Shown here piece by piece: positions 2 to 38,935 of a stretch of DNA of 64,000 bases. The stretch lies in IMG/VR virus record IMGVR_UViG_3300023109_003600, positions 32,001 through 96,000 of that record. One strand, given 5' to 3'. The notes below the pieces were generated by a model, which saw only the letters and a program-made list of their open reading frames with translations, had not been told where the DNA came from and ran no database searches. Position numbers and translations under genes: made by a program. Each line of letters begins with the position of its first letter. Within the stretch, counting starts at the first letter, position 1. This DNA comes from a virus.

Positions 2-1021
2 ATGGAGCAAATAATAGAAGAGAGAGGTAATAACCCTCAGACCGAATTCGGATTAATGGGTCCACACAAGAGTATCAATAACCTATATGGGTCCCTATTA
101 AGGCCAGGAAATATCACTGTTATAGTTTCTAGATCTGGAGTAGGGAAAACCACGTTCTGTTTGGATTACTGCACTAAGGTTTCACTCAAATATGATAACG
201 TTCCAGTTCTTCATTTTGATAATGGAGAAATGAGCGAAGAAGAAATAATGATGAGGCAGTGCGCTGCCCTATCTGGAGTGCCAATGCATTATCTTGAGAC
301 TGGCTCTTGGAGACAGAATCCAGAATTTGTAGATAAAGTAAGGAAAGTTTGGCCTCAAGTAAAGAATATGAAATTATATTATTACAACGTAGCAGGCCAG
401 TCGGTCGACCAAATGATAAATACAATGCGTAGATTCTATTTTTCTAAAGTGGGCAGGGGAAATAAAATGATATTTAGTTTCGATTACATAAAAACAACAT
501 CAGAGCAAAACAGCAACAACTTGTCGCACTGGCAGTTAGTAGGAGATATGGTAACAAAATTTAAAAATTTCATTCAAGACGAAATAGTATTTGAAGATGG
601 TCCAGTAATAGGAATGCTCACTAGCGTCCAATCAAATAGGTTGGGTATAACCAATAATAGGAATTCAGAAAATGTTGTTGACGACGAAAGCATAGTTTCG
701 CTTTCAGATCAAATCACTCAATTCAGCTCTCACTTATTTTCCTTAAGAAAAAAGACAATTGATGAACTAGCAGAAGATCCAGAGGGTTTTGGCACACACA
801 AATTAATATGCTTTAAGAATAGGTTTTTAGGGGAGGACGCACAAAGAGCTTTAAACGAAGTAGAGCTTCCTGACGGAAGAAAAAAGAAGAACTATATCAA
901 CCTAGAGCTTAATAATTTTGACATTAAAGACGTAGGAGATCTGAAGGATATGGTAGACTATCAAAATTCTAGCAATGTATCATTAGCTTCTAACGACGAA
1001 GAGTTTTCTCTCGACTTATGA
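2..1021 (+). CDS. dnaB: Replicative DnaB-like helicase (probably 5'-truncated by the window edge)
   Basis: Walker A SRSGVGKT, FDNGEMS, FDYIK, SVQSNR and KNRF motifs of the DnaB C-terminal domain; followed by primase. Confidence 0.9.
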   Translation: MEQIIEERGNNPQTEFGLMGPHKSINNLYGSLLRPGNITVIVSRSGVGKTTFCLDYCTKVSLKYDNVPVLHFDNGEMSEEEIMMRQCAALSGVPMHYLETGSWRQNPEFVDKVRKVWPQVKNMKLYYYNVAGQSVDQMINTMRRFYFSKVGRGNKMIFSFDYIKTTSEQNSNNLSHWQLVGDMVTKFKNFIQDEIVFEDGPVIGMLTSVQSNRLGITNNRNSENVVDDESIVSLSDQITQFSSHLFSLRKKTIDELAEDPEGFGTHKLICFKNRFLGEDAQRALNEVELPDGRKKKNYINLELNNFDIKDVGDLKDMVDYQNSSNVSLASNDEEFSLDL

Positions 1022-6639: not shown

Positions 6640-6900
6640 ATGGATCTAGTCGAATTAAATAATAGAATACATTCTGCAACAAAATCAGAGTTACAATCTA
6701 ATTTATCTACATGGATAAGTAATATAAAAAGCATTCTTTCAGCAAATCGAACTGAAGACGAGCTTTATTATAAAAATCATACGGGCAGAGAATTATTTAG
6801 CAAGTTGTATAATTTCGGAATGACTTCTGAATTAACTACAATTAACGATACCTATGACGTAGGCTTTAGACCCACAACCGTAACAGGAATTAAAGTTTAA
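6640..6900 (+). CDS. Hypothetical protein between nrdA and nrdB
   Basis: 86 aa ORF filling the gap; GTGTA motif 10 nt upstream. Confidence 0.7.
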   Translation: MDLVELNNRIHSATKSELQSNLSTWISNIKSILSANRTEDELYYKNHTGRELFSKLYNFGMTSELTTINDTYDVGFRPTTVTGIKV

Positions 6901-6952
6901 TTTTTTTTCTTGTTATTGGTCTTTAATCGTGTTATAATCGTTATATATTAAT

Positions 6953-7966
6953 ATGAAAGAAAAAACTGGTGAAATTTTAGGTAAAGAACTTGGAGGCGTT
7001 AATCAAATACTTCCCCACAAACATAAGTATGTATGGGATTTATTTTTAAAAAGCTGTGCAAACAACTGGATGCCTACAGAAATATCTATGCAAAACGATA
7101 TTAAACAATGGAAAAATAATGAAATTACAGATGATGAAAAACTACTTGTTAAACGCTGTCTCGGATTTTTTGCTGGATCTGAGTCTCTGGTTGGCAATAA
7201 TCTTTTTACTGTGGCCGCTAGATTTATTACTGACCCTGAGTGCGGTCAGTACATCATGCGTCAAGGCTTTGAGGAAAGCCTTCACAACCACACGATAGTT
7301 TATATATGTGATAGCTTAGATCTAGACGTTAAAGAGGTTTACGAAGCTTATCAAAATATTGAAAGCATAAAAGCCAAGGATGATTTCTTAATGAATATTA
7401 CGACGGACGTTAATAGACAAGGCTTTAATCATGCAACAAAAGAGGGCAAGCAAGAGCTACTAAGAAATTTTTTAACCTACTGGATTGTATGCGAAGGAAC
7501 CTTTTTCTTTAGTGGTTTTGCTATGCTTCTAGCATTAGGTCGCCAAAATAAACTTCAAGGCATTTCAGATCAAATAAAATATACATTAAGAGACGAAACA
7601 AATCATATAGCTTTTGGAACATATGTTATTAAGAAAATCATCGAACAAGATCCTTCTATATGGACTCAAAAAATGCAAGACGAGTTCGTTGAACATATTA
7701 AAAAAGCAGTAGAGCTAGAAATTGCCTATGCGCACGACGTTCTTCCTACTGGAATACTTGGATTAAATGCTGACATGTTTGTAGACTATATGCACTTTAT
7801 CGGCAATAGAAGGCTAGAATCAATTGGTTTAGATTTTAGGTTCCCAAGCGACAATAATCCATTTCCTTGGCTCGGAGAAGTAGTAGACGTTCAAGCAATG
7901 GGTAATTTTTTCGAGAGAAGAGTTAGAGAATATCAGCAGAGCGGATCTTTAGAAGACGACTTTTAA
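6953..7966 (+). CDS. nrdB: Ribonucleotide reductase beta subunit, class Ic (R2c)-like
   Basis: ANNWMPTEI, FFAGSESLVGNN, EESLH, EGTFFFSGF, RDETNH, NFFERRVREY; upstream TTGTTA-17-TATAAT at 6910-6938. Confidence 0.95.
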   Translation: MKEKTGEILGKELGGVNQILPHKHKYVWDLFLKSCANNWMPTEISMQNDIKQWKNNEITDDEKLLVKRCLGFFAGSESLVGNNLFTVAARFITDPECGQYIMRQGFEESLHNHTIVYICDSLDLDVKEVYEAYQNIESIKAKDDFLMNITTDVNRQGFNHATKEGKQELLRNFLTYWIVCEGTFFFSGFAMLLALGRQNKLQGISDQIKYTLRDETNHIAFGTYVIKKIIEQDPSIWTQKMQDEFVEHIKKAVELEIAYAHDVLPTGILGLNADMFVDYMHFIGNRRLESIGLDFRFPSDNNPFPWLGEVVDVQAMGNFFERRVREYQQSGSLEDDF

Positions 7967-21766: not shown

Positions 21767-24202
21767 ATGGAACTTAAACCCAACTTTACACCCCGAGCGC
21801 AAGAAGTTATTGCAGCTTCAAGAAAGCTAGCTTTAAACTATAATAAAAGAGTAGTTAACGAAGAACATTTATTTCTTGCTTTAGCGAAAGTAGATACTCA
21901 ATCGCTAGAAACTCTCTTTTCGGCATTTGATCTAGAAAGAAAAAATCTTATACTTTTTATATCCAAAAAGCTTAAAAAAAATACATCAGCGCCAACAAAA
22001 AAAAATTACTTCTCAGGAGAATTTAAATCAATCCTAGGGGGAGCGGTATTAGAAGCCGAAAAACACGAGCATGACTACATAGGAGTACAACATATACTAC
22101 TTTCAGTGTTCAAAAAACAAGACAATACAATTTGTCTTTTTTTTATAGAAAACGGAATCAGTGTCGAGTCATGCATATTAACAATTAGATCTCAATTTTT
22201 AATTAGTTCTTCTTCTGAAACTTTAGAGTCTAGCAGGCTATCCTCAGAATCAAATTATATCCCTAAAATAGAAGAAGAATATAAAGAAGGTCTAAAGTCT
22301 AATTTCTTTCATTGCATGAACACAAAAGCAATGCAAGGAAAATATGACGAAGTTATTGGTAGAGATCAAGAAATTAAAGATATTTCGGAAGTATTATGCA
22401 GGAGAAGTAAAAATAATCCTATACTCCTAGGGGATGCAGGAGTTGGAAAAACTGCAGTTGTAGAAGGTTTATCTCAAAAAATAGTAGAAGGTTCTGTAAC
22501 AGAATTTCTGTACAAAAAAAGAATTTATTCGCTAGATATGGCAAGCATGATTGCTGGCACAAAATATAGAGGGCAATTTGAAGAAAGGCTCAAAAATACT
22601 ATGGAAGAAATCCAGAAAGATAAAGACGCGATTATTTTTATAGACGAAATTCACTCAATTGTAGGCGCGGGAAGCGCTGAGGGAACTATGGACGCAGCAA
22701 ATATACTAAAACCAATGCTAGCAAGGGGCGATATCATGTGCATAGGAGCGACCACGCAAGAAGAATACAGAAAAACTATATTAAAAGATGGAGCATTAGA
22801 TAGAAGATTTCAACCGATCCATATTAAAGAGCCAACGCCTTCGGAATGTAAAGAAATATTAAACGGTCTCAAAGAAAAATATGAATCATTTCATCAAGTT
22901 AAGTATGAGGAAAATGTTGTAGAAAATTCCATCAAACTGTCCTCAAGGTTTATCTTAGATAGACAGCTTCCAGATAAAGCCATAGACTTACTAGATCAAG
23001 CTGGATCCAAAGCTAAAATTTCAGCATTTAAGCGTCCTGAAGAAGCGTTACAAATAGAAGAAGAGTTAAACGGTCTATACGAAATAGAGTCTACTTCTAG
23101 CGAACCTAATGTAATTATGAAGAAAAGAGATGCCTTAATGAAAAAATATCAAAATATAATTGAAGGTTGGGCAGAACAATCCACTTTAAAGAAAATTTTT
23201 GTAACAAATAAAGAATTATTTCAAGTAGTATCCCAAAAAACTGGGGTACCTATCGAAGATATCTCGAGCTCTGATACAGACAAATTTCTAAATTTAGAAA
23301 ACTCCTTAAAAAATGTCATCATCGGCCAAGACCCAGCAATTGAATCTATTTCAGAAACACTTATAAGGAACAAAGCAGGCTTAAGGGATGAACAAAAGCC
23401 TATAGGTAGTTTTTTATTTTTGGGTAGTAGCGGTGTAGGTAAAACTTACCTAGCAAAACAGGTGGCGAGTTTAGCGTTCGGAGACTCTAGTGATTTAATA
23501 CATATAGATATGTCAGAGTTTTCAGAGCAAGCTTCAACGGCTAAATTTGTAGGGGCATCGCCAGGATATATAGGTTTTGAGTCATCTGGAGCAATTACAG
23601 AAAGAGTAAGAAAGAAACCTTATTCAGTTTTATTGTTTGATGAGGTAGAAAAAGCTCACGAAGACGTGACGAACTTGCTACTACAGATACTAGAAGAAGG
23701 TAGGCTAACAGATAGTTCAGGAAGAACAATTTCCTTTAGAAATGTAATCGTAATCATAACAGGAAATATTGGGTCAAATTTCATGCAAAAGAATAATTCA
23801 GTAGGATTTATGCCTTCAAATTCGGAAGAAGACATTAATCAAAAGGTTATCGCAGAAGCAAGAAAAAAACTAAAACCAGAGCTCATCAATAGGATAGAGT
23901 CTATAATAAACTTCAAGAATTTCGAAGAAGCTCATTTGAAAAAAATCTCTGGACTGGAATTAGAAAAAAGCATGTCAAGAATAGAGGGCTCTATGGATAA
24001 AATTAATATAAAACCTTCGGTTTTTTCTTACATTGCTCAAAAAGCGCTAGAGCTCAATGATGGAGCGAGGCCAATCAAAAATATAATTAAAAAAGAAGTA
24101 GAGAACCCTTTGGCAAAATTAATTCTTCAAAACAAATCCTACGAGTCTAAAACACTAAGTATATCCGTAGTAAAAAATTGCATAAAAGTTTTATTGACTT
24201 AG
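21767..24202 (+). CDS. clpC: ClpC-type AAA+ unfoldase
   Basis: Clp-N repeats (NFTPRAQ), two Walker A motifs (GDAGVGKT, GSSGVGKT), LPDKAIDL, FDEVEKAH, SVGF ClpP-docking loop. Confidence 0.9.
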   Translation: MELKPNFTPRAQEVIAASRKLALNYNKRVVNEEHLFLALAKVDTQSLETLFSAFDLERKNLILFISKKLKKNTSAPTKKNYFSGEFKSILGGAVLEAEKHEHDYIGVQHILLSVFKKQDNTICLFFIENGISVESCILTIRSQFLISSSSETLESSRLSSESNYIPKIEEEYKEGLKSNFFHCMNTKAMQGKYDEVIGRDQEIKDISEVLCRRSKNNPILLGDAGVGKTAVVEGLSQKIVEGSVTEFLYKKRIYSLDMASMIAGTKYRGQFEERLKNTMEEIQKDKDAIIFIDEIHSIVGAGSAEGTMDAANILKPMLARGDIMCIGATTQEEYRKTILKDGALDRRFQPIHIKEPTPSECKEILNGLKEKYESFHQVKYEENVVENSIKLSSRFILDRQLPDKAIDLLDQAGSKAKISAFKRPEEALQIEEELNGLYEIESTSSEPNVIMKKRDALMKKYQNIIEGWAEQSTLKKIFVTNKELFQVVSQKTGVPIEDISSSDTDKFLNLENSLKNVIIGQDPAIESISETLIRNKAGLRDEQKPIGSFLFLGSSGVGKTYLAKQVASLAFGDSSDLIHIDMSEFSEQASTAKFVGASPGYIGFESSGAITERVRKKPYSVLLFDEVEKAHEDVTNLLLQILEEGRLTDSSGRTISFRNVIVIITGNIGSNFMQKNNSVGFMPSNSEEDINQKVIAEARKKLKPELINRIESIINFKNFEEAHLKKISGLELEKSMSRIEGSMDKINIKPSVFSYIAQKALELNDGARPIKNIIKKEVENPLAKLILQNKSYESKTLSISVVKNCIKVLLT

Positions 24203-24222
24203 CGCGTATATAGGTGTACTAT
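24194..24222 (+). promoter_or_regulatory. sigma70 promoter of tmRNA
   Basis: TTGACT-17-TACTAT. Confidence 0.75.
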
Positions 24223-24246
24223 ACTTATAGTTCTTTAACAGTTTAT

Positions 24247-24680
24247 GGGGGTGTTCTGGATTCGACTGAAGTTGAATTCTAACACCGCAAGAGGGAGATT
24301 GCACTACGGCTCCCCCATCAATGTGCAAAAGCTTTACATGGCTCTAAAAAACATGTTAGAGCTCTCGGCTTCAAAAATCGTATCGCTGCAAAGCGCTTCG
24401 GTTATAAGAGCCGTAAGCTCGCCCTAGCAGCATAGGCTGCTAGCCTCTTACTTCTTGACGCAGATACAGAGGTAAAGAGGTCATCAATCTGCAAAACAGA
24501 AAAAGTTTATCTGTATCAAAAACTGTACCGCTGAGTATTCGGAGGCCCTAGTTCTAGGTGAATAATTGAAACAGAGGGTTGGATGTTAATATCAAAACCA
24601 TAAAAAAAATTAACTATACTTGTAGACGTGTTAGCTTGAAGGCTATCAGGACGCGGGTTCAACTCCCGCCACCTCCACCA
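24247..24680 (+). ncRNA. ssrA: tmRNA (SsrA), 434 nt
   Basis: GGGGGTG/CACCTCC-ACCA acceptor stem with G3.U70, GGATTCGAC, T-arm GCGGGTTCAACTCCCGC, pseudoknot 1 (GGGAG/CTCCC and TTGCAC/GTGCAA), tag frame ending LALAA-TAG in hairpin CTAGCAGC-ATAG-GCTGCTAG. Confidence 0.97.
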
Positions 24681-33945: not shown

Positions 33946-34656
33946 ATGCCACCAAACAATAAAAAAAACTTCAAAATACCGCAGCTCGAACAAACAATAA
34001 AAGTTAACTGCCTTAAATTAGACGAAAAACAATTATCATTTTTAGAAAAATCTCTATCTGAAGATACAAAAGTTATGATAATTGCTGGTCCCGCAGGAAC
34101 TAGCAAAACCTACATGTCTGTCTACTCAGCGATGAGATTGCTGTCTTCAGACCCTAAAAAAGATTTAATTTATATTAGAACTGTAATTGAGAGCGCAGAC
34201 AAGGGAATGGGTGCCCTGCCAGGAGATCTAGATGAAAAATTCAACCCGTACATACTCCCATTACTAGATAAACTTGAAGAAATTTTGCCCAAAAACTCTA
34301 CATTAAAGAGAGATTTACTAGACAAAGGCCGAGTTTCGGCATTACCTGTAAATTTCCTAAGAGGGGCAAGCTGGAATAATAAAATTATAGTTGCTGATGA
34401 AGCGCAAAACTTCTCCTTCAAAGAGTTAACGACACTAATTACTAGAATAGGCGAGAACTGTACCCTATTTATATGTGGAGACCCAATGCAAAGCGATATC
34501 AACGGCAAGAGTGGCTTCGGAGATTTAATTAACATTTTTAACGACGAAGAAAGCCAGGAAAAAGGCATTCATAGTTTTTTCTTTAACCATGCAGACATAA
34601 AGAGAAGCAAAATATTAAAATTCATAATACAAAAAATCCAAAAATATGGGGGCTAA
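33946..34656 (+). CDS. phoH: PhoH-like ATPase
   Basis: GPAGTSKT, LPGDLDEK, FLRGAS, DEAQN, TRIGE, GDPMQSD. Confidence 0.95.
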   Translation: MPPNNKKNFKIPQLEQTIKVNCLKLDEKQLSFLEKSLSEDTKVMIIAGPAGTSKTYMSVYSAMRLLSSDPKKDLIYIRTVIESADKGMGALPGDLDEKFNPYILPLLDKLEEILPKNSTLKRDLLDKGRVSALPVNFLRGASWNNKIIVADEAQNFSFKELTTLITRIGENCTLFICGDPMQSDINGKSGFGDLINIFNDEESQEKGIHSFFFNHADIKRSKILKFIIQKIQKYGG

Positions 34657-35164
34657 ATACAGAACTAAATACTCAGAAAACATTTATGACAGAAATTGGG
34701 GCAAAAATGGAGCAATGTTTATCAGCAATCTTGTCAGAGCTTCTATTTTTAACGAGTTTGAATTGGTTAAGCAGGGTTTTTCCCCAAGTGCTACTTTTGA
34801 TATTACGTTTCCGCATGCTTTAGTTGGTCTTAATGTAAATGGCAAAGATTATCTTTCATATAAAGAGGGTAATAAAGATCAACAAATAAAATACAAAGCA
34901 AAAGATGGCATGAAAGAGATAGCTACTTTTTTAAAGCGAAAAAAAATACTAAATAAATCAAATTACAAAAACTTTCGAACGAAAGTTTTCATTCTTTTCG
35001 AACAAAAAACTGGTGGAAATTTCTTAGAAATTATAAATGGGGGAGGTATAAATTTCCTTGAAAAAATCGAAGATCAACAGAAAAATTCAAGGTTATTTAC
35101 TTATGATTATTACGAATCTATTTGCGTCAACAATATAGTGCATTGTTACGCCAGTCTACATTGA
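34646..35164 (+). CDS. Hypothetical protein
   Basis: 172 aa ORF overlapping the phoH end. Confidence 0.6.
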   Translation: MGAKYRTKYSENIYDRNWGKNGAMFISNLVRASIFNEFELVKQGFSPSATFDITFPHALVGLNVNGKDYLSYKEGNKDQQIKYKAKDGMKEIATFLKRKKILNKSNYKNFRTKVFILFEQKTGGNFLEIINGGGINFLEKIEDQQKNSRLFTYDYYESICVNNIVHCYASLH

Positions 35165-35406
35165 ATACTATCTATCAAGAATCAGGTTGCTGGTTTACAT
35201 ACGACTATGCGCATAAAAAAATATTCTTAAGCGTTGATCAGGTTAAGGCGCTCTGCCCTGCTGTAGATAAATTTACTGAAGACTCGGTAAAAAGATTCTC
35301 AAAAATTAAACTTAGTAACAATTTTCATAATTGCACTTTGATACCAACAAAAAACATAAAGGATATATATAATAGCTTGTTTAAAATAAAACAAAAAAAG
35401 TGTTGA
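35161..35406 (+). CDS. Hypothetical protein
   Basis: TTG start overlapping the previous stop. Confidence 0.5.
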   Translation: MNTIYQESGCWFTYDYAHKKIFLSVDQVKALCPAVDKFTEDSVKRFSKIKLSNNFHNCTLIPTKNIKDIYNSLFKIKQKKC

Positions 35407-35494
35407 CAAAACCATACTACTGATGTAATATATATACATAATCAAAATTGAGAATCAAACTCAAGCAAATAAAATAATTGATCTTTAACATTTT
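35403..35494 (+). promoter_or_regulatory. sigma70 promoter plus boxA-like leader element
   Basis: TTGACA-17-TAATAT at 35403-35431; TGATCTTTAACATTTT at about 35479-35494 resembles the rrn boxA (TGCTCTTTAACA). Confidence 0.7.
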
Positions 35495-35496
35495 AA

Positions 35497-35770
35497 TTTG
35501 AGGTTTAACCCAATCTTGCAAGAGAAGGGAATCATCGTTTAACTGCCTAAAGTTAATCCTCAAAAAACTTTGGAAGGGCTTATAATCCTTCCTGTGGGTG
35601 ACTGAAATAGCCTGTTGTGAGCGGGCTAAGGTATACAATTCTCTGTGGTAGAGTGCCAATGGACAAATGTCTGAGGCAGGGTTCCCAACCCTAATTGTAG
35701 TGCGAGTAGGAAAATTATGAACTGATGTTCACACCAAAAGTTGAGAGTATACAGTAATCTCTCCCCACAC
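35497..35770 (+). ncRNA. Highly structured non-coding RNA (possibly manA-motif related)
   Basis: GC-richer ORF-free stretch with nested stems, e.g. TTTGAGG/CCTCAAA, GGAAGG/CCTTCC, TGTGGG/CCCACA, TAGCCTGT/GCGGGCTA, TACAATT/AATTGTA, GAGAG/CTCTC; followed by a T-rich tract. Confidence 0.75.
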
Positions 35771-35786
35771 TTATTTTTTAAACCCC

Positions 35787-36095
35787 ATGATCTTTATAAA
35801 AAAAGACGAACAATCAAGAAACGCACTAAAACTAATTAAGCAGGTTCTACAAGCTCATCAAGACATGTTAGAACAAAAAGAGTCTGAACTAGTATGCATT
35901 GCCTCAGAAGAAATTAAAAATGAAATTAACAGCATCCTAAAAAACAAGGCCCCGCAAGAAGAAACGTTTTCTAAAGCAGATCTAATTTCTCAAGAGATAG
36001 AAGTTATAGATATAAAGATAGCTGCTATACAATATACGTACGATTACGTAAAGTTGATGTTAAAACAATGCGAAAAATTGGAAAAGAATACATAA
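35787..36095 (+). CDS. Hypothetical coiled-coil protein
   Basis: 102 aa ORF. Confidence 0.65.
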   Translation: MIFIKKDEQSRNALKLIKQVLQAHQDMLEQKESELVCIASEEIKNEINSILKNKAPQEETFSKADLISQEIEVIDIKIAAIQYTYDYVKLMLKQCEKLEKNT

Positions 36096-36295
36096 AGTAT
36101 CATCTCGAAAATACCTTTCGAGAGCAATCAAAAGAAAGACGGTTACTAAAAATTGACTGGTACGACGAAAAAGGAATACGGGCAGCGGCTTATATGTCAA
36201 AAGTAAATCCCAACCATGAGGATGTAGACAATTTTCTGCAAAACAAAAGTTTAACAGACTTAATTTTACTTTTTCCACCCCTGGAGGTAGAATAA
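36068..36295 (+). CDS. Hypothetical protein
   Basis: 75 aa ORF. Confidence 0.55.
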   Translation: MRKIGKEYIKYHLENTFREQSKERRLLKIDWYDEKGIRAAAYMSKVNPNHEDVDNFLQNKSLTDLILLFPPLEVE

Positions 36296-36341
36296 ATAAG
36301 ATTAATTATTTATATACGAAAATCCAAGTGTAATAAAATTC

Positions 36342-36578
36342 ATGGACCCAACCTTTAAAAATATAATGTTTATCCTTATCTCTGTCTTTATTACATGGGA
36401 GTACTATTCAAGAGGAAAAGAGGTTGAGGAGTTAAAAGAAACAATATTCGTTCAACATCAAGCGATAGATTCTCAGAATTTATTAATTAATTTTTATAAA
36501 AATAAATTTCACGAAGAATCCTACAACCCTCCTTTCTATGAAAGCCAACAAAAAATAAACAAATATGAAAGTAAGTGA
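36342..36578 (+). CDS. Membrane-anchored small protein
   Basis: N-terminal transmembrane segment then coiled coil; GTGTA 9 nt upstream. Confidence 0.65.
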   Translation: MDPTFKNIMFILISVFITWEYYSRGKEVEELKETIFVQHQAIDSQNLLINFYKNKFHEESYNPPFYESQQKINKYESK

Positions 36579-37005
36579 ATTAGTAAAAAAATGCAACTAT
36601 AAAAAAGTTTTTAATATAGTTTACAAGAAATATTTAATAAATAAATCTCCCGAACATGTAATCAGAGTAGATCTGGAAATTCAAAAAGCTTATAACTTCA
36701 TAAGTAAAGTGTCATGTTCCCCAGAAGTCGCAAAAGATAGTCACTCGGTATACGTACTCTTTACAGAGGGTGAACAAGTAGATATATGTATTCATGATGA
36801 AGAATCAGACGAATTATGCTCTTTAGATCTTTATGACTGGACTCAGCTAGCATGTCTTGAATTTAAAAAGGGTTGCGAGTTATCCAGTTCAGAAATTGCT
36901 GCAGAAATACTCTGGGAAATAACCCATTGGGGAAACAATGAAGATATTAAAAAGTTACTAAAAGACATTGACGACACAATTAACAACTTGACAAAAGACG
37001 ATTAA
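36565..37005 (+). CDS. Hypothetical protein
   Basis: AEILWEITHWG motif; 146 aa. Confidence 0.65.
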   Translation: MKVSELVKKCNYKKVFNIVYKKYLINKSPEHVIRVDLEIQKAYNFISKVSCSPEVAKDSHSVYVLFTEGEQVDICIHDEESDELCSLDLYDWTQLACLEFKKGCELSSSEIAAEILWEITHWGNNEDIKKLLKDIDDTINNLTKDD

Positions 37006-37025: not shown

Positions 37026-37838
37026 ATGAAACTAGCTATAGTTATACCATATAGGTCAAGGAAAGATTATTTAGATATTTTCCTAAAATCTACCGCAAAG
37101 TATATTGAATCTAAAAATAGAATCAATAAAAAAGATTACAATTTTATCCTTGCAGAACAGCTAGATAATAAATTATTTAATCGAGGGCTGGCTATTAACA
37201 TAGGCGCAGAATACGCAAATAAATATAATCTTGGAGAATATTTCATATTTCATGACGTAGACACAATTCCACTGAGCGGCATTGATTATAAATACAATCA
37301 ACTAACAGAATGGTGGTTTTTGTGCGCGGGAGGATTTAAAATACACTCTCGAGACTTTGAGTCAGTCAATGGGTTTAGCAATAATTATAAAGGGTGGGGT
37401 TTTGAAGATACAGATTTTCAAAATAGATTATTTCACTTCAATAAAGACCCTTTCTTTTGGCCAAAATTAGGCAAAGAAAAAAAATCAACCATGCTTGATC
37501 TAGAAATCAAAGATTTAGAATCAAATCAAGAAAGCAAGAGGTATTTTGAAGAAACAATGCTTCGAAAAGGCCTTGGAAAATACCAAGGCTTCCCAAGATA
37601 TATGTCATTAAAAGACCTAGGAATTGAACATGAAAGAGCAGACAAATCAAAATTATGGTACCAAGAGGATTTAATTAAAGAAAACAAAGCTTTATTAGAT
37701 AAAATTCAAGAACAATTTAGCTCAGAAGAAAAAACAAAACTTTATAATTCAGATGGTTTTTCGCAATCAAAATTTTACCCAACCCAAGAATGCAAAGACT
37801 TTGGGAACTTTCACAGAATAGGATTCTATACGGAATGA
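37026..37838 (+). CDS. GT7 (beta-1,4-galactosyltransferase-like) glycosyltransferase
   Basis: IVIPYR, FNRGLAIN, FHDVD, NGFSNNYKGWGFED; upstream TTGACA-17-TAACAT at 36988-37016. Confidence 0.85.
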   Translation: MKLAIVIPYRSRKDYLDIFLKSTAKYIESKNRINKKDYNFILAEQLDNKLFNRGLAINIGAEYANKYNLGEYFIFHDVDTIPLSGIDYKYNQLTEWWFLCAGGFKIHSRDFESVNGFSNNYKGWGFEDTDFQNRLFHFNKDPFFWPKLGKEKKSTMLDLEIKDLESNQESKRYFEETMLRKGLGKYQGFPRYMSLKDLGIEHERADKSKLWYQEDLIKENKALLDKIQEQFSSEEKTKLYNSDGFSQSKFYPTQECKDFGNFHRIGFYTE

Positions 37839-37875
37839 ACTTGACTTTAATTAATAAATAATGTATCATCATACT

Positions 37876-38124
37876 ATGAAAAATAAAAAAGAAAACACAA
37901 TTAAAAATCTATATCGCACGTTTTTTTCTTCAAGGTTTTTGCTAGTTTATAAAAACAATGCTGGCAAGATTAAAACATACGAAATCTCAAAACCAGAACT
38001 AGATCACTCTTTCGGCAATAAGAATGAACATAGAAACAATGCTGGGTTTAGAGCTTTTTGTTTTGGCAGAAAAGAATTTAGGTCTTTTCGGCATGACAGA
38101 ATCGTTTCTTTAACGAAATCATAA
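37876..38124 (+). CDS. Stand-alone WYL-like domain protein
   Basis: AFCFGRKEFRSFRHDRI matches the WYL C-terminal motif; upstream TTGACT-17-TATCAT at 37841-37869. Confidence 0.65.
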   Translation: MKNKKENTIKNLYRTFFSSRFLLVYKNNAGKIKTYEISKPELDHSFGNKNEHRNNAGFRAFCFGRKEFRSFRHDRIVSLTKS

Positions 38125-38127
38125 AAT

Positions 38128-38358
38128 ATGGCAGAGTTCTACCAAAAGTATAGCTTAAACGCTGAAAGTTGCGAAAAGCTTGTTAAAAAAAATGAATATA
38201 CCTTCTATAAGGTTGTAGAAACTAAACTTAAAATACCCCTAAAGCAATTAAATACATTTGTTATCGAGTGCGAAGCAAGCGGATATATTATCAACCAACT
38301 ACAAAAAGATAATCAAAATAATTCGTGTACAATTTGGTTGCATCATAAAATTTTATGA
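38128..38358 (+). CDS. Hypothetical protein
   Basis: 76 aa ORF. Confidence 0.6.
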   Translation: MAEFYQKYSLNAESCEKLVKKNEYTFYKVVETKLKIPLKQLNTFVIECEASGYIINQLQKDNQNNSCTIWLHHKIL

Positions 38359-38489
38359 ACAGCGCAGGCAATGGCAAAGGAGATTCTCCAAGAAATATTT
38401 TTTCTCAGAATTATACAAAAAATTACGAAAGCATAAATTGGAAAAAGCCGAAGGTCAAAAAAAAAATAAAAACAAAAAACAAAAAATAG
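38355..38489 (+). CDS. Small basic phage protein (GKGDSPR type; not in the ORF track)
   Basis: MNSAGNGKGDSPRNIFSQNYTKNYESINWKK..., 44 aa, ATGA overlap. Confidence 0.65.
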   Translation: MNSAGNGKGDSPRNIFSQNYTKNYESINWKKPKVKKKIKTKNKK

Positions 38490-38524
38490 TGGACGATATA
38501 CATTAACATGTGTATATATATTAC

Positions 38525-38935
38525 ATGAAAGTAGTAGCAGTCAGCGGGTACTTTGACCCAATACATGTCGGACACCTAGAATATCTAGAGCAAGCAAAAA
38601 AATTAGGAGATAAACTTGTTGTAATCGTAAACAATGATTATCAATGTACCTTAAAAAAGGATAGACCCTTCATGAAAGAAAATGATAGGTTAAAAATTGT
38701 TTCAGCATTAAAAGTTGTAGATGAAGCTTTTTTGTCTATAGATCAAGATAAAAGCGTATGCCTTTCTTTAGAGCATATCAAGCCTAATATTTTTGCAAAT
38801 GGAGGAGATAGGACCTTAGGAGAAATTCCAGAGTCGAAAATTATGAAAAAATTTAATATAGACATGGTGGACGGATTAGGAGACAAGATTAGAAGCTCTT
38901 CAGATCTTACGGGATTGAAGCAAAAAAACGCCTAG
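38525..38935 (+). CDS. Cytidylyltransferase-family (TagD/RfaE/FAD-synthase-like) protein
   Basis: SGYFDPIHVGH, VNND, FANGGDR, RSSS. Confidence 0.88.
   Translation: MKVVAVSGYFDPIHVGHLEYLEQAKKLGDKLVVIVNNDYQCTLKKDRPFMKENDRLKIVSALKVVDEAFLSIDQDKSVCLSLEHIKPNIFANGGDRTLGEIPESKIMKKFNIDMVDGLGDKIRSSSDLTGLKQKNA

Follow-up and report, generated by a model that had tools for sequence, protein, structure and literature searches.

A full-length manA RNA laid out like a small rRNA operon in a marine phage genome

The locus and its relatives

The window analysed here comprises 64,000 nucleotides (bases 32001–96000) of the IMG/VR virus record IMGVR_UViG_3300023109_003600, a linear record of 121,649 bp that is about 90% complete and has a G+C content of 33.5%. 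Nearly all genes of the window are on the plus strand, as are the features described below unless stated otherwise. At the gathering threshold, an Rfam scan of the whole window returned two matches, a tmRNA at 24247–24680, which scores 102.6 bits though ARAGORN did not call it in the window, and a manA RNA at 35572–35773 (+). The manA RNA is preceded by a promoter, a leader hairpin, a boxA and an optional module, an order that the window shares with more than 100 related marine-phage loci.

The window's phage appears to have no close cultured relative, judging from sequence comparisons. A blastn search with 35300–36300 gave no match among cultured phages, and the phage's PhoH protein is less than 40% identical to its matches in cultured phages, which are spread over phages of many hosts and therefore allow no host call.

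Related loci were gathered with three sequence patterns. A gapped pattern built on two conserved blocks of manA retrieved 23 viral contigs, namely 22 with classic cyanophage-type manA and one, L012, that was the sole contig of the window's kind. A 22-mer around boxA had matches in five viral contigs, which aligned with the window and have in common the order promoter, small hairpin, 22-mer, variable hairpin domain and manA. Finally, a subtype-specific pattern recovered 39 viral contigs (many of 50–214 kb) and at least 120 metagenome contigs. The resulting manA-subtype set, window included, holds at least 160 loci, at least 135 of them unique, and 12 of 13 loci checked by cmscan score 71–85 bits for manA. 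The window's subtype, whose sequence signature is TGTGGGTGA...GAACTGATGTTCAC, was found in genomes of about 120–214 kb that also carry a tmRNA. The thirteenth of the loci checked, a Dermabacter match from a genome scan, contained no manA by cmscan and was taken as chance.

The manA core and its fold

The core is a member of the already catalogued manA family and is thus known, not new. Its cmscan match (RF01745) covers model positions 1–192 of 192 at 35572–35773, scoring 77.1 bits against a gathering score of 55.2 (E = 7.1e-18); the match was unchanged when the stretch was searched on its own, and the 121,649-bp record holds a single manA copy. A first-pass annotation, made from the sequence alone, had remarked that the 3' end of this RNA resembles manA and had proposed a cmscan including RF01745. 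The strong match over the full model bears the resemblance out and, by that annotation's own reasoning, removes the novelty of the core while confirming the RNA itself.

The fold opens with a first hairpin at 35572–35592 (GGAAGG 35572–35577 / CCTTCC 35587–35592), followed by a core enclosed by a long-range helix at 35593–35769 (TGTGGG 35593–35598 / CCCACA 35764–35769). Both elements lie where they had been proposed, and the inner helices proposed with them match either the structure line of the manA model or the consensus fold of 120 relatives. The covariation check suggested at the same time was made on a MAFFT alignment of 120 unique cores from the relatives listed, not fitted to the covariance model, in which 26 of the 43 pairs predicted are compensatory, both sides having changed. 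Folded as a single sequence, 35438–35780 is not unusually stable (z = −1.44), its fold being equalled by 8 of 100 shuffles; thermodynamics thus adds nothing, and it is the covariance-model score and the covariation that argue for structure.

Two pseudoknots proposed in the first-pass annotation are not supported by covariation in this alignment. Of the ACTG (35601–04) × CAGT (35752–55) pairing, the pair 35603–35753 is retained by 32 of 120 relatives; of the GTATAC × GTATAC pairing, 67 of the 120 relatives retain one pair and 80 another. Compensating changes number zero in both pairings. A pairing of the manA terminal loop is marked ‘pseudoknot?’ in a figure legend of Weinberg et al. 2010 (PMC2864571). 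Alternatively, the terminal loop could pair with the GAAC-UGAU-GUUC hairpin (ACUG with CAGU), whose covariation is uninformative because the subtype search pattern fixed that hairpin, GAACUGAUGUUC.

The extent of the RNA needs some adjustment. The stretch, described earlier as ORF-free, is free of annotated-like genes but contains a mechanical 80-aa TTG frame on the minus strand (35417–35659); the earlier length of about 270 nt corresponds to 35497–35769, whereas a transcript beginning at the likely initiation site would measure about 340 nt up to the T-run.

Classic manA RNAs of T4-like cyanophages and other marine sources share the fold and the conserved blocks with the window (model 1–192, 77.1 bits), including the first hairpin, the closing helix, the multibranch core and the terminal hairpin with its GUAUACAGUAAUC loop. 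Both kinds are found in marine phages, each with a nearby upstream promoter. In classic manA, however, the −10 box ends about 6–16 nt before the first hairpin, and a boxA, a leader hairpin and an insert slot were each found in 0 of 19 loci; the window's subtype differs in its signature, in carrying a boxA leader and modular inserts and in usually having a terminator of its own.

Promoter, leader hairpin and boxA

A sigma-70-type promoter, TTGACA-17-TAATAT, lies at 35403–35431, as had been claimed, and agrees with the consensus at 10 of 12 positions. Promoter-like sites are not enriched in the region (12 found, 9.9 expected). Among the listed loci, a near-consensus promoter (TTGACN-16..18-TANNNT, at most 120 nt 5' of boxA) is present in 103 of 113 on the sense strand and in 0 of 113 antisense.

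Between promoter and boxA, at 35448–35464, is a leader hairpin, TTGAG-AATCAAA-CTCAA, in a boxB-like position; it overlaps a second promoter-like site (35448–35475). A TTGAG-loop-CTCAA hairpin occurs in 96 of 118 listed boxA-bearing leaders, and a TTAAG/CTTAA variant in at least four loci constitutes a compensatory change. Loops that contain G or C are complementary to the stretch immediately 5' of boxA, in eight or more distinct combinations, among them GGAT/ATCC, GAGGC/GCCTC, GGGG/CCCC and AGCTT/AAGCT. This suggests, provisionally, that the leader loop pairs with that segment as a pseudoknot, a case that rests on the at least eight complementary pair types. Complementarity of 4 nt or more was observed in 42 of 96 listed leaders against about 28 of 96 after dealing the loops to other leaders; since loops are shared among related leaders, this contrast is weak.

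The rrn-like boxA, TGATCTTTAACA followed by TTTTAA, is at 35479–35490, the place given for it in the first-pass annotation; TGATCTTTAACAT has one exact copy in the window, in this site. A degenerate boxA ([TC]G[AT]TCTTT[AT]A[ACT]A, sense strand, at most 300 nt upstream, in loci with that much sequence) was found in 112 of 121 listed unique loci, a count somewhat inflated by the pattern's having been derived from the same loci, which leaves the contrast with the controls intact (0/123 downstream, 0/121 antisense, 0.19/121 in shuffles). The spacing is also similar, with 47 nt from the −10 box to boxA in the window and most commonly 41–59 nt among listed relatives.

The published gammaproteobacterial consensus is GYTCTTTAANA (Baniulyte et al. 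2017, PMC5725501). The window's GATCTTTAACA departs from it at one of 11 positions, having A in place of Y; the region also agrees at 15 of 17 positions with the E. coli rrn boxA-spacer oligonucleotide (Table 1, PMC2724277). The exact consensus occurs in 28 of 112 listed manA leaders (24 TGTTCTTTAATA, 2 TGTTCTTTAACA and 2 CGTTCTTTAAAA). The commonest variants are TGATCTTTAACA, in at least 30 loci, and TGATCTTTTACA, in at least 25, which are one or two positions off the published consensus.

The window's boxA sits as rrn boxA sites do: promoter-proximal, after a hairpin and on an untranslated transcript. The likeness to an rRNA operon leader extends to the structured nature of that transcript, which here is a phage RNA of 200–500 nt and not rRNA. 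Elsewhere, boxA also acts at suhB, and the boxA survey reporting this left non-coding RNAs out, by its authors' own statement (Baniulyte et al. 2017, PMC5725501).

A slot for swappable modules

The slot between boxA and manA spans 0–240 nt and holds recurring, folded modules that are swappable. Distances from boxA to the core fall into classes of 46–49 nt (36 listed loci without an insert, including L012), 70–74 nt, 96–117 nt and up to 288 nt; in the window the distance is 114 nt. The window's slot is occupied by accessory module A (35497–35564), which consists of an outer helix (TTTGAGG 35497–35503 / CCTCAAA 35558–35564), a GCAA-capped inner hairpin and a near-invariant segment of 26 nt. The first-pass annotation had treated it as domain 1 of the RNA; it is indeed real, structured and at that place, but it is an optional, swappable module and not a fixed part. 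Module A occurs in at least eight unique loci and is absent from L012, the closest relative, and from 36 of 112 listed loci.

Among relatives, the outer helix of module A shows the compensatory series UUUAAC/GUUAA, UUCAAC/GUUGAA and CUAGC/GCUAG, and the inner hairpin is capped by a GNRA or another loop. Module B, a second recurring insert, is found alone or behind module A. At the E-value level, a search of 35300–35900 against Rfam gave nothing beyond chance-level matches for module A (sn2991, E = 0.88; SAM-II on the minus strand, E = 0.95), and the larger inserts of 13 loci matched no Rfam family.

Presence in seawater metatranscriptomes

The stretch is present, always as assembled contigs, in three seawater metatranscriptome runs from three studies. 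In two runs from two studies the sole contigs are 35593–35765 and 35594–35760, which have no loose ends and span the helix-closed core; leader, module A and first hairpin are all missing from them. In the third run (X1), contigs cover the promoter, the leader and the ORF downstream, and one of them (35653–35953) bridges manA and that ORF; since X1 covers the promoter too, it may contain DNA, or read-through transcripts. Run X5 yielded no contig for the stretch, and in X2 and X3 parts of it are not covered by RNA contigs; neither absence is used as evidence. The metatranscriptome check proposed by the first-pass annotation thus places the stretch in three runs, in the form of assembled contigs, which cannot show the ends, strand or level of an RNA. 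The two core contigs give a weak hint that the manA core is the processed or most stable species.

The same leader precedes the phage tmRNA

Besides the boxA before manA, the plus strand of the whole phage genome has one further boxA-like site, GTTCTTTAACA at 24230–24240. This second site follows a TTGACT-17-TACTAT promoter, ends 6 nt before the tmRNA 5' end and matches GYTCTTTAANA at 11 of 11 positions. We compared seven phage tmRNAs, from the window's phage, L012, four complete genomes of 194–214 kb with the manA subtype and a 210-kb MAG-binned contig. A boxA ends 5–6 nt before the tmRNA 5' end in all seven, and the exact consensus is present in five of the seven leaders (G000, L012, G001:C4, G002 and G005). 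An extended boxA pattern, searched in five phage genomes, gave four manA sites, four tmRNA sites and one coding-like site, that is nine, against five for the backwards pattern as control. In G003, a third extended-boxA site in a T-rich, coding-like stretch has no promoter and was taken as chance.

A possible bacterial counterpart comes from a marine gammaproteobacterial MAG titled Cellvibrionales, in which GTTCTTTAACA lies about 200 nt before the 16S gene. The related 210-kb contig is inside a Cellvibrionales-titled MAG and, as it carries a phage-like manA and a boxA-led tmRNA, is probably a binned phage genome; the tmRNA of the MAG bacterium itself has no boxA. For Cellvibrionales as host this is a hint at most. 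A search for phage genes encoding NusB, S10 and NusG found none, so host factors would be needed if the site works through them.

A competing account holds that the ‘boxA’ is a phage-specific lookalike, either a signal for the processing or maturation of stable RNAs or the binding site of a phage protein, and not a Nus-factor site. The 5' processing of tmRNA occurs at the mature 5' end, and the site lies 5–6 nt before that end in all seven phage genomes; the commonest variants, TGATCTTTAACA and TGATCTTTTACA, break the consensus at one or two positions, and the two core contigs begin only at 35593, well past boxA. Such a lookalike would nevertheless have to account for the exact consensus in 28 of 112 listed manA leaders and five of seven tmRNA leaders, for the presence of the same 11-mer in the marine gammaproteobacterial MAG's rrn leader and for a promoter-proximal position with a preceding hairpin, as in rrn leaders. 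Processing also normally removes the boxA of rrn leaders, which makes a processing signal and a Nus-factor site compatible readings. On this balance we consider the lookalike account unlikely.

The 3' side

A T-run at 35774–35779 directly follows the closing helix (CTTA, then six T). It is the T-rich tract that had been claimed after the last helix, and T-rich tracts are common at this place in relatives. Terminator-like sites in the window region 34500–36800 numbered zero, and the terminator scan showed no expression platform overlapping the manA fold in the window. A small ORF of 102 aa (35787–36095), possibly co-transcribed, starts 14 nt after the manA match; as the window has no hairpin terminator, some transcripts probably run on into it. 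This ORF has no Pfam match and one faint PHROG match (E = 0.068). Its homologues lie 3' of manA in 5 of 109 listed loci, including L012; a related-locus search with the ORF returned no relative, though alignments show homologues in L012 and L025.

Relatives commonly end differently. A simple, crude custom scan found a hairpin terminator, meaning a GC-rich hairpin with a T-run, no more than about 120 nt 3' of manA in 86 of 127 listed unique loci. These terminators lie 8–50 nt or more past the closing helix and therefore do not overlap the fold, unlike an expression platform; in L025, L026 and L027/L028 a GC-rich terminator comes directly after manA. A new promoter pattern 3' of manA is present in 33 of 123 listed loci. 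A same-strand ORF begins within 400 nt of manA in 109 of 112 listed relatives, and these first downstream ORFs form 17 clusters, none with a known family; the largest cluster accounts for 80 of 109 listed loci and is absent from the window's phage.

These data bear on the role under which manA is filed. Rfam types it as Cis-reg, and Weinberg et al. 2010 (PMC2864571) presented it as a probable riboswitch in potential 5' UTRs, so that the fold could be a cis regulator (a riboswitch or protein-binding leader) of the ORF at 35787–36095, with an mRNA promoter and 5' UTR upstream. An ORF 14–20 nt after manA without a hairpin terminator, in the window and in L012, and the X1 contig bridging manA and ORF would fit such a role. 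So would the prevalence of a same-strand ORF within 400 nt and the 80 ORFs of a single family, which conserved synteny among related phages would explain equally well. Against it stand the separate GC-rich terminator before the next gene in 86 of 127 listed relatives, among them L025, in which the homologue of the window's ORF sits behind the terminator, the fresh promoter pattern after manA in 33 of 123, and the split of the downstream ORFs into 17 clusters, none with a known function. The boxA leader, moreover, is typical of untranslated stable RNAs and also precedes the tmRNA in the same phages. We therefore regard cis regulation as improbable at this locus.

A probable stand-alone gene for a stable RNA

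The locus encodes manA RNA at full length in an arrangement resembling a small rRNA operon, and we think it likely that it is a stand-alone gene for a manA-family RNA made as a Nus-assisted stable product. The first-pass description of an independently promoted, boxA-led, multi-domain non-coding RNA is supported by promoter, boxA and layout, all conserved in more than 100 related loci, and an independent RNA also fits the finding that most relatives end in their own terminator.

By analogy with rRNA operons, expression would proceed as follows. Host RNA polymerase would start about 7 nt after the −10 box, and the boxA RNA would recruit a host NusB/NusE-based complex, which would protect the transcript, untranslated as it is, against Rho. 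The complex would also keep the 5' end near the polymerase and in this way, as proposed for rRNA, may aid formation of the closing helix, which spans 170 nt. Leader and module would then perhaps be trimmed, leaving the helix-closed core, and the mature manA RNA would work in trans. It may do so as a homo-oligomer, a state reported for other manA RNAs in vitro in a 2026 preprint.

The family is described in Weinberg et al. 2010 (PMC2864571), Rfam 14, a cyanophage genome paper and the 2026 preprint. A literature search, mostly of titles and abstracts, found no link of boxA with manA or with phage tmRNA, and the manA context reported here (promoter, boxA leader, modules and terminator) is absent from the literature searched and in that sense new. 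An orphan riboswitch candidate since 2010, manA became, in 2026, a showcase of RNA-only cages in vitro. The layout, which recurs in more than 100 marine phage loci and is paralleled by the same leader before the phages' tmRNA, gives it a testable biological frame, in which the rRNA-type Nus pathway would yield a stable RNA as product. If true, boxA-dependent control would extend to phage non-coding RNAs.

A more far-reaching scenario, which we put forward as speculation and would not expect to hold in full, is that a large lineage of marine phages of about 120–214 kb exploits boxA leaders to mass-produce tmRNA and manA with the host's rRNA-type transcription and folding machinery, that manA forms a multimeric, RNA-only particle in the infected cell, and that the slot modules are displayed on it or released as small RNAs. 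Cryo-EM in the preprint shows manA RNAs assembled in vitro into pentamer-based decamers and a 60-mer cage (bioRxiv 10.64898/2026.07.01.735769); they assembled at high concentrations of RNA and Mg, and none of those it describes is known to be of the window's subtype. Self-assembly of the window's RNA is possible, and a reasonable guess by analogy with these members of the same Rfam family. Loops presumed to be counterparts of the reported kissing loops contain short complementary stretches in the window, GUGGU with CCC(A) and ACUG with CAGU, the correspondence of loops between the two RNAs being itself a guess.

Leader hairpin and boxA in the manA unit

In the leader of the manA RNA (Rfam RF01745), the loop of the hairpin that precedes boxA, the rrn-like motif, is complementary to sequence at or beside boxA. 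At window positions 35448–35483, AUCAA in the loop is complementary to a UUGAU whose bases run into the 5' end of boxA, and among related loci of the same manA subtype the loop is complementary to the segment just 5' of boxA in L030, L035, L049, L071, L076, L078, L102 and others, with at least eight different pair types across loci. Such a pairing might form a pseudoknot, with boxA either hidden or exposed by it. In L183, on the 210-kb contig described below, a short lipoprotein-like ORF on the minus strand (6900–7040; about 48 aa) with an LAGC lipobox-like motif lies between the manA-unit promoter and the leader hairpin.

The slot between boxA and manA holds a different, larger insert with the recurring sequence GGGGCAACAGC ... 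GCTGGGTCGA ... TCGACTGCCCC in some loci (L064, L088, L097, L100, L103, L111 and L163); an Rfam scan of this insert in three of them (L064, L088 and L100) matched no family.

A boxA-led tmRNA in phages

The window also encodes a phage tmRNA, which together with its promoter and boxA occupies 24187–24680; Rfam matches the tmRNA at 102.6 bits, and ARAGORN missed it. By sequence pattern, the tmRNA is served by its own promoter, TTGACT-17-TACTAT, within the unit, and the boxA GTTCTTTAACA (24230–24240) ends 6 nt upstream of the tmRNA 5' end. This promoter and boxA arrangement precedes the tmRNA in all seven phage genomes examined; the tmRNA examined in a bacterial MAG was without that boxA arrangement.

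The manA subtype also occurs on a 210,818-bp contig of this MAG, titled Cellvibrionales, where the tmRNA is boxA-led, as in phages, and G+C content is about 35–38% in the 8 kb seen. The contig probably represents a phage genome that was placed in the MAG by binning, and so gives only a weak hint of the host.

Sequence within and downstream of manA

Glycosyltransferase family 7-like and cytidylyltransferase-like genes (37026–38935) lie about 1.3–3 kb downstream of manA. Sugar-nucleotide functions of this kind were listed near manA RNAs in 2010 (PMC2864571), but in the window several small ORFs separate manA from the two genes. A promoter-like site, TTCACA-16-TACAGT (35728–35755; 9/12 matches), falls within manA, where the 3' portion is conserved, and precedes the small ORF at 35787; it may be coincidental.
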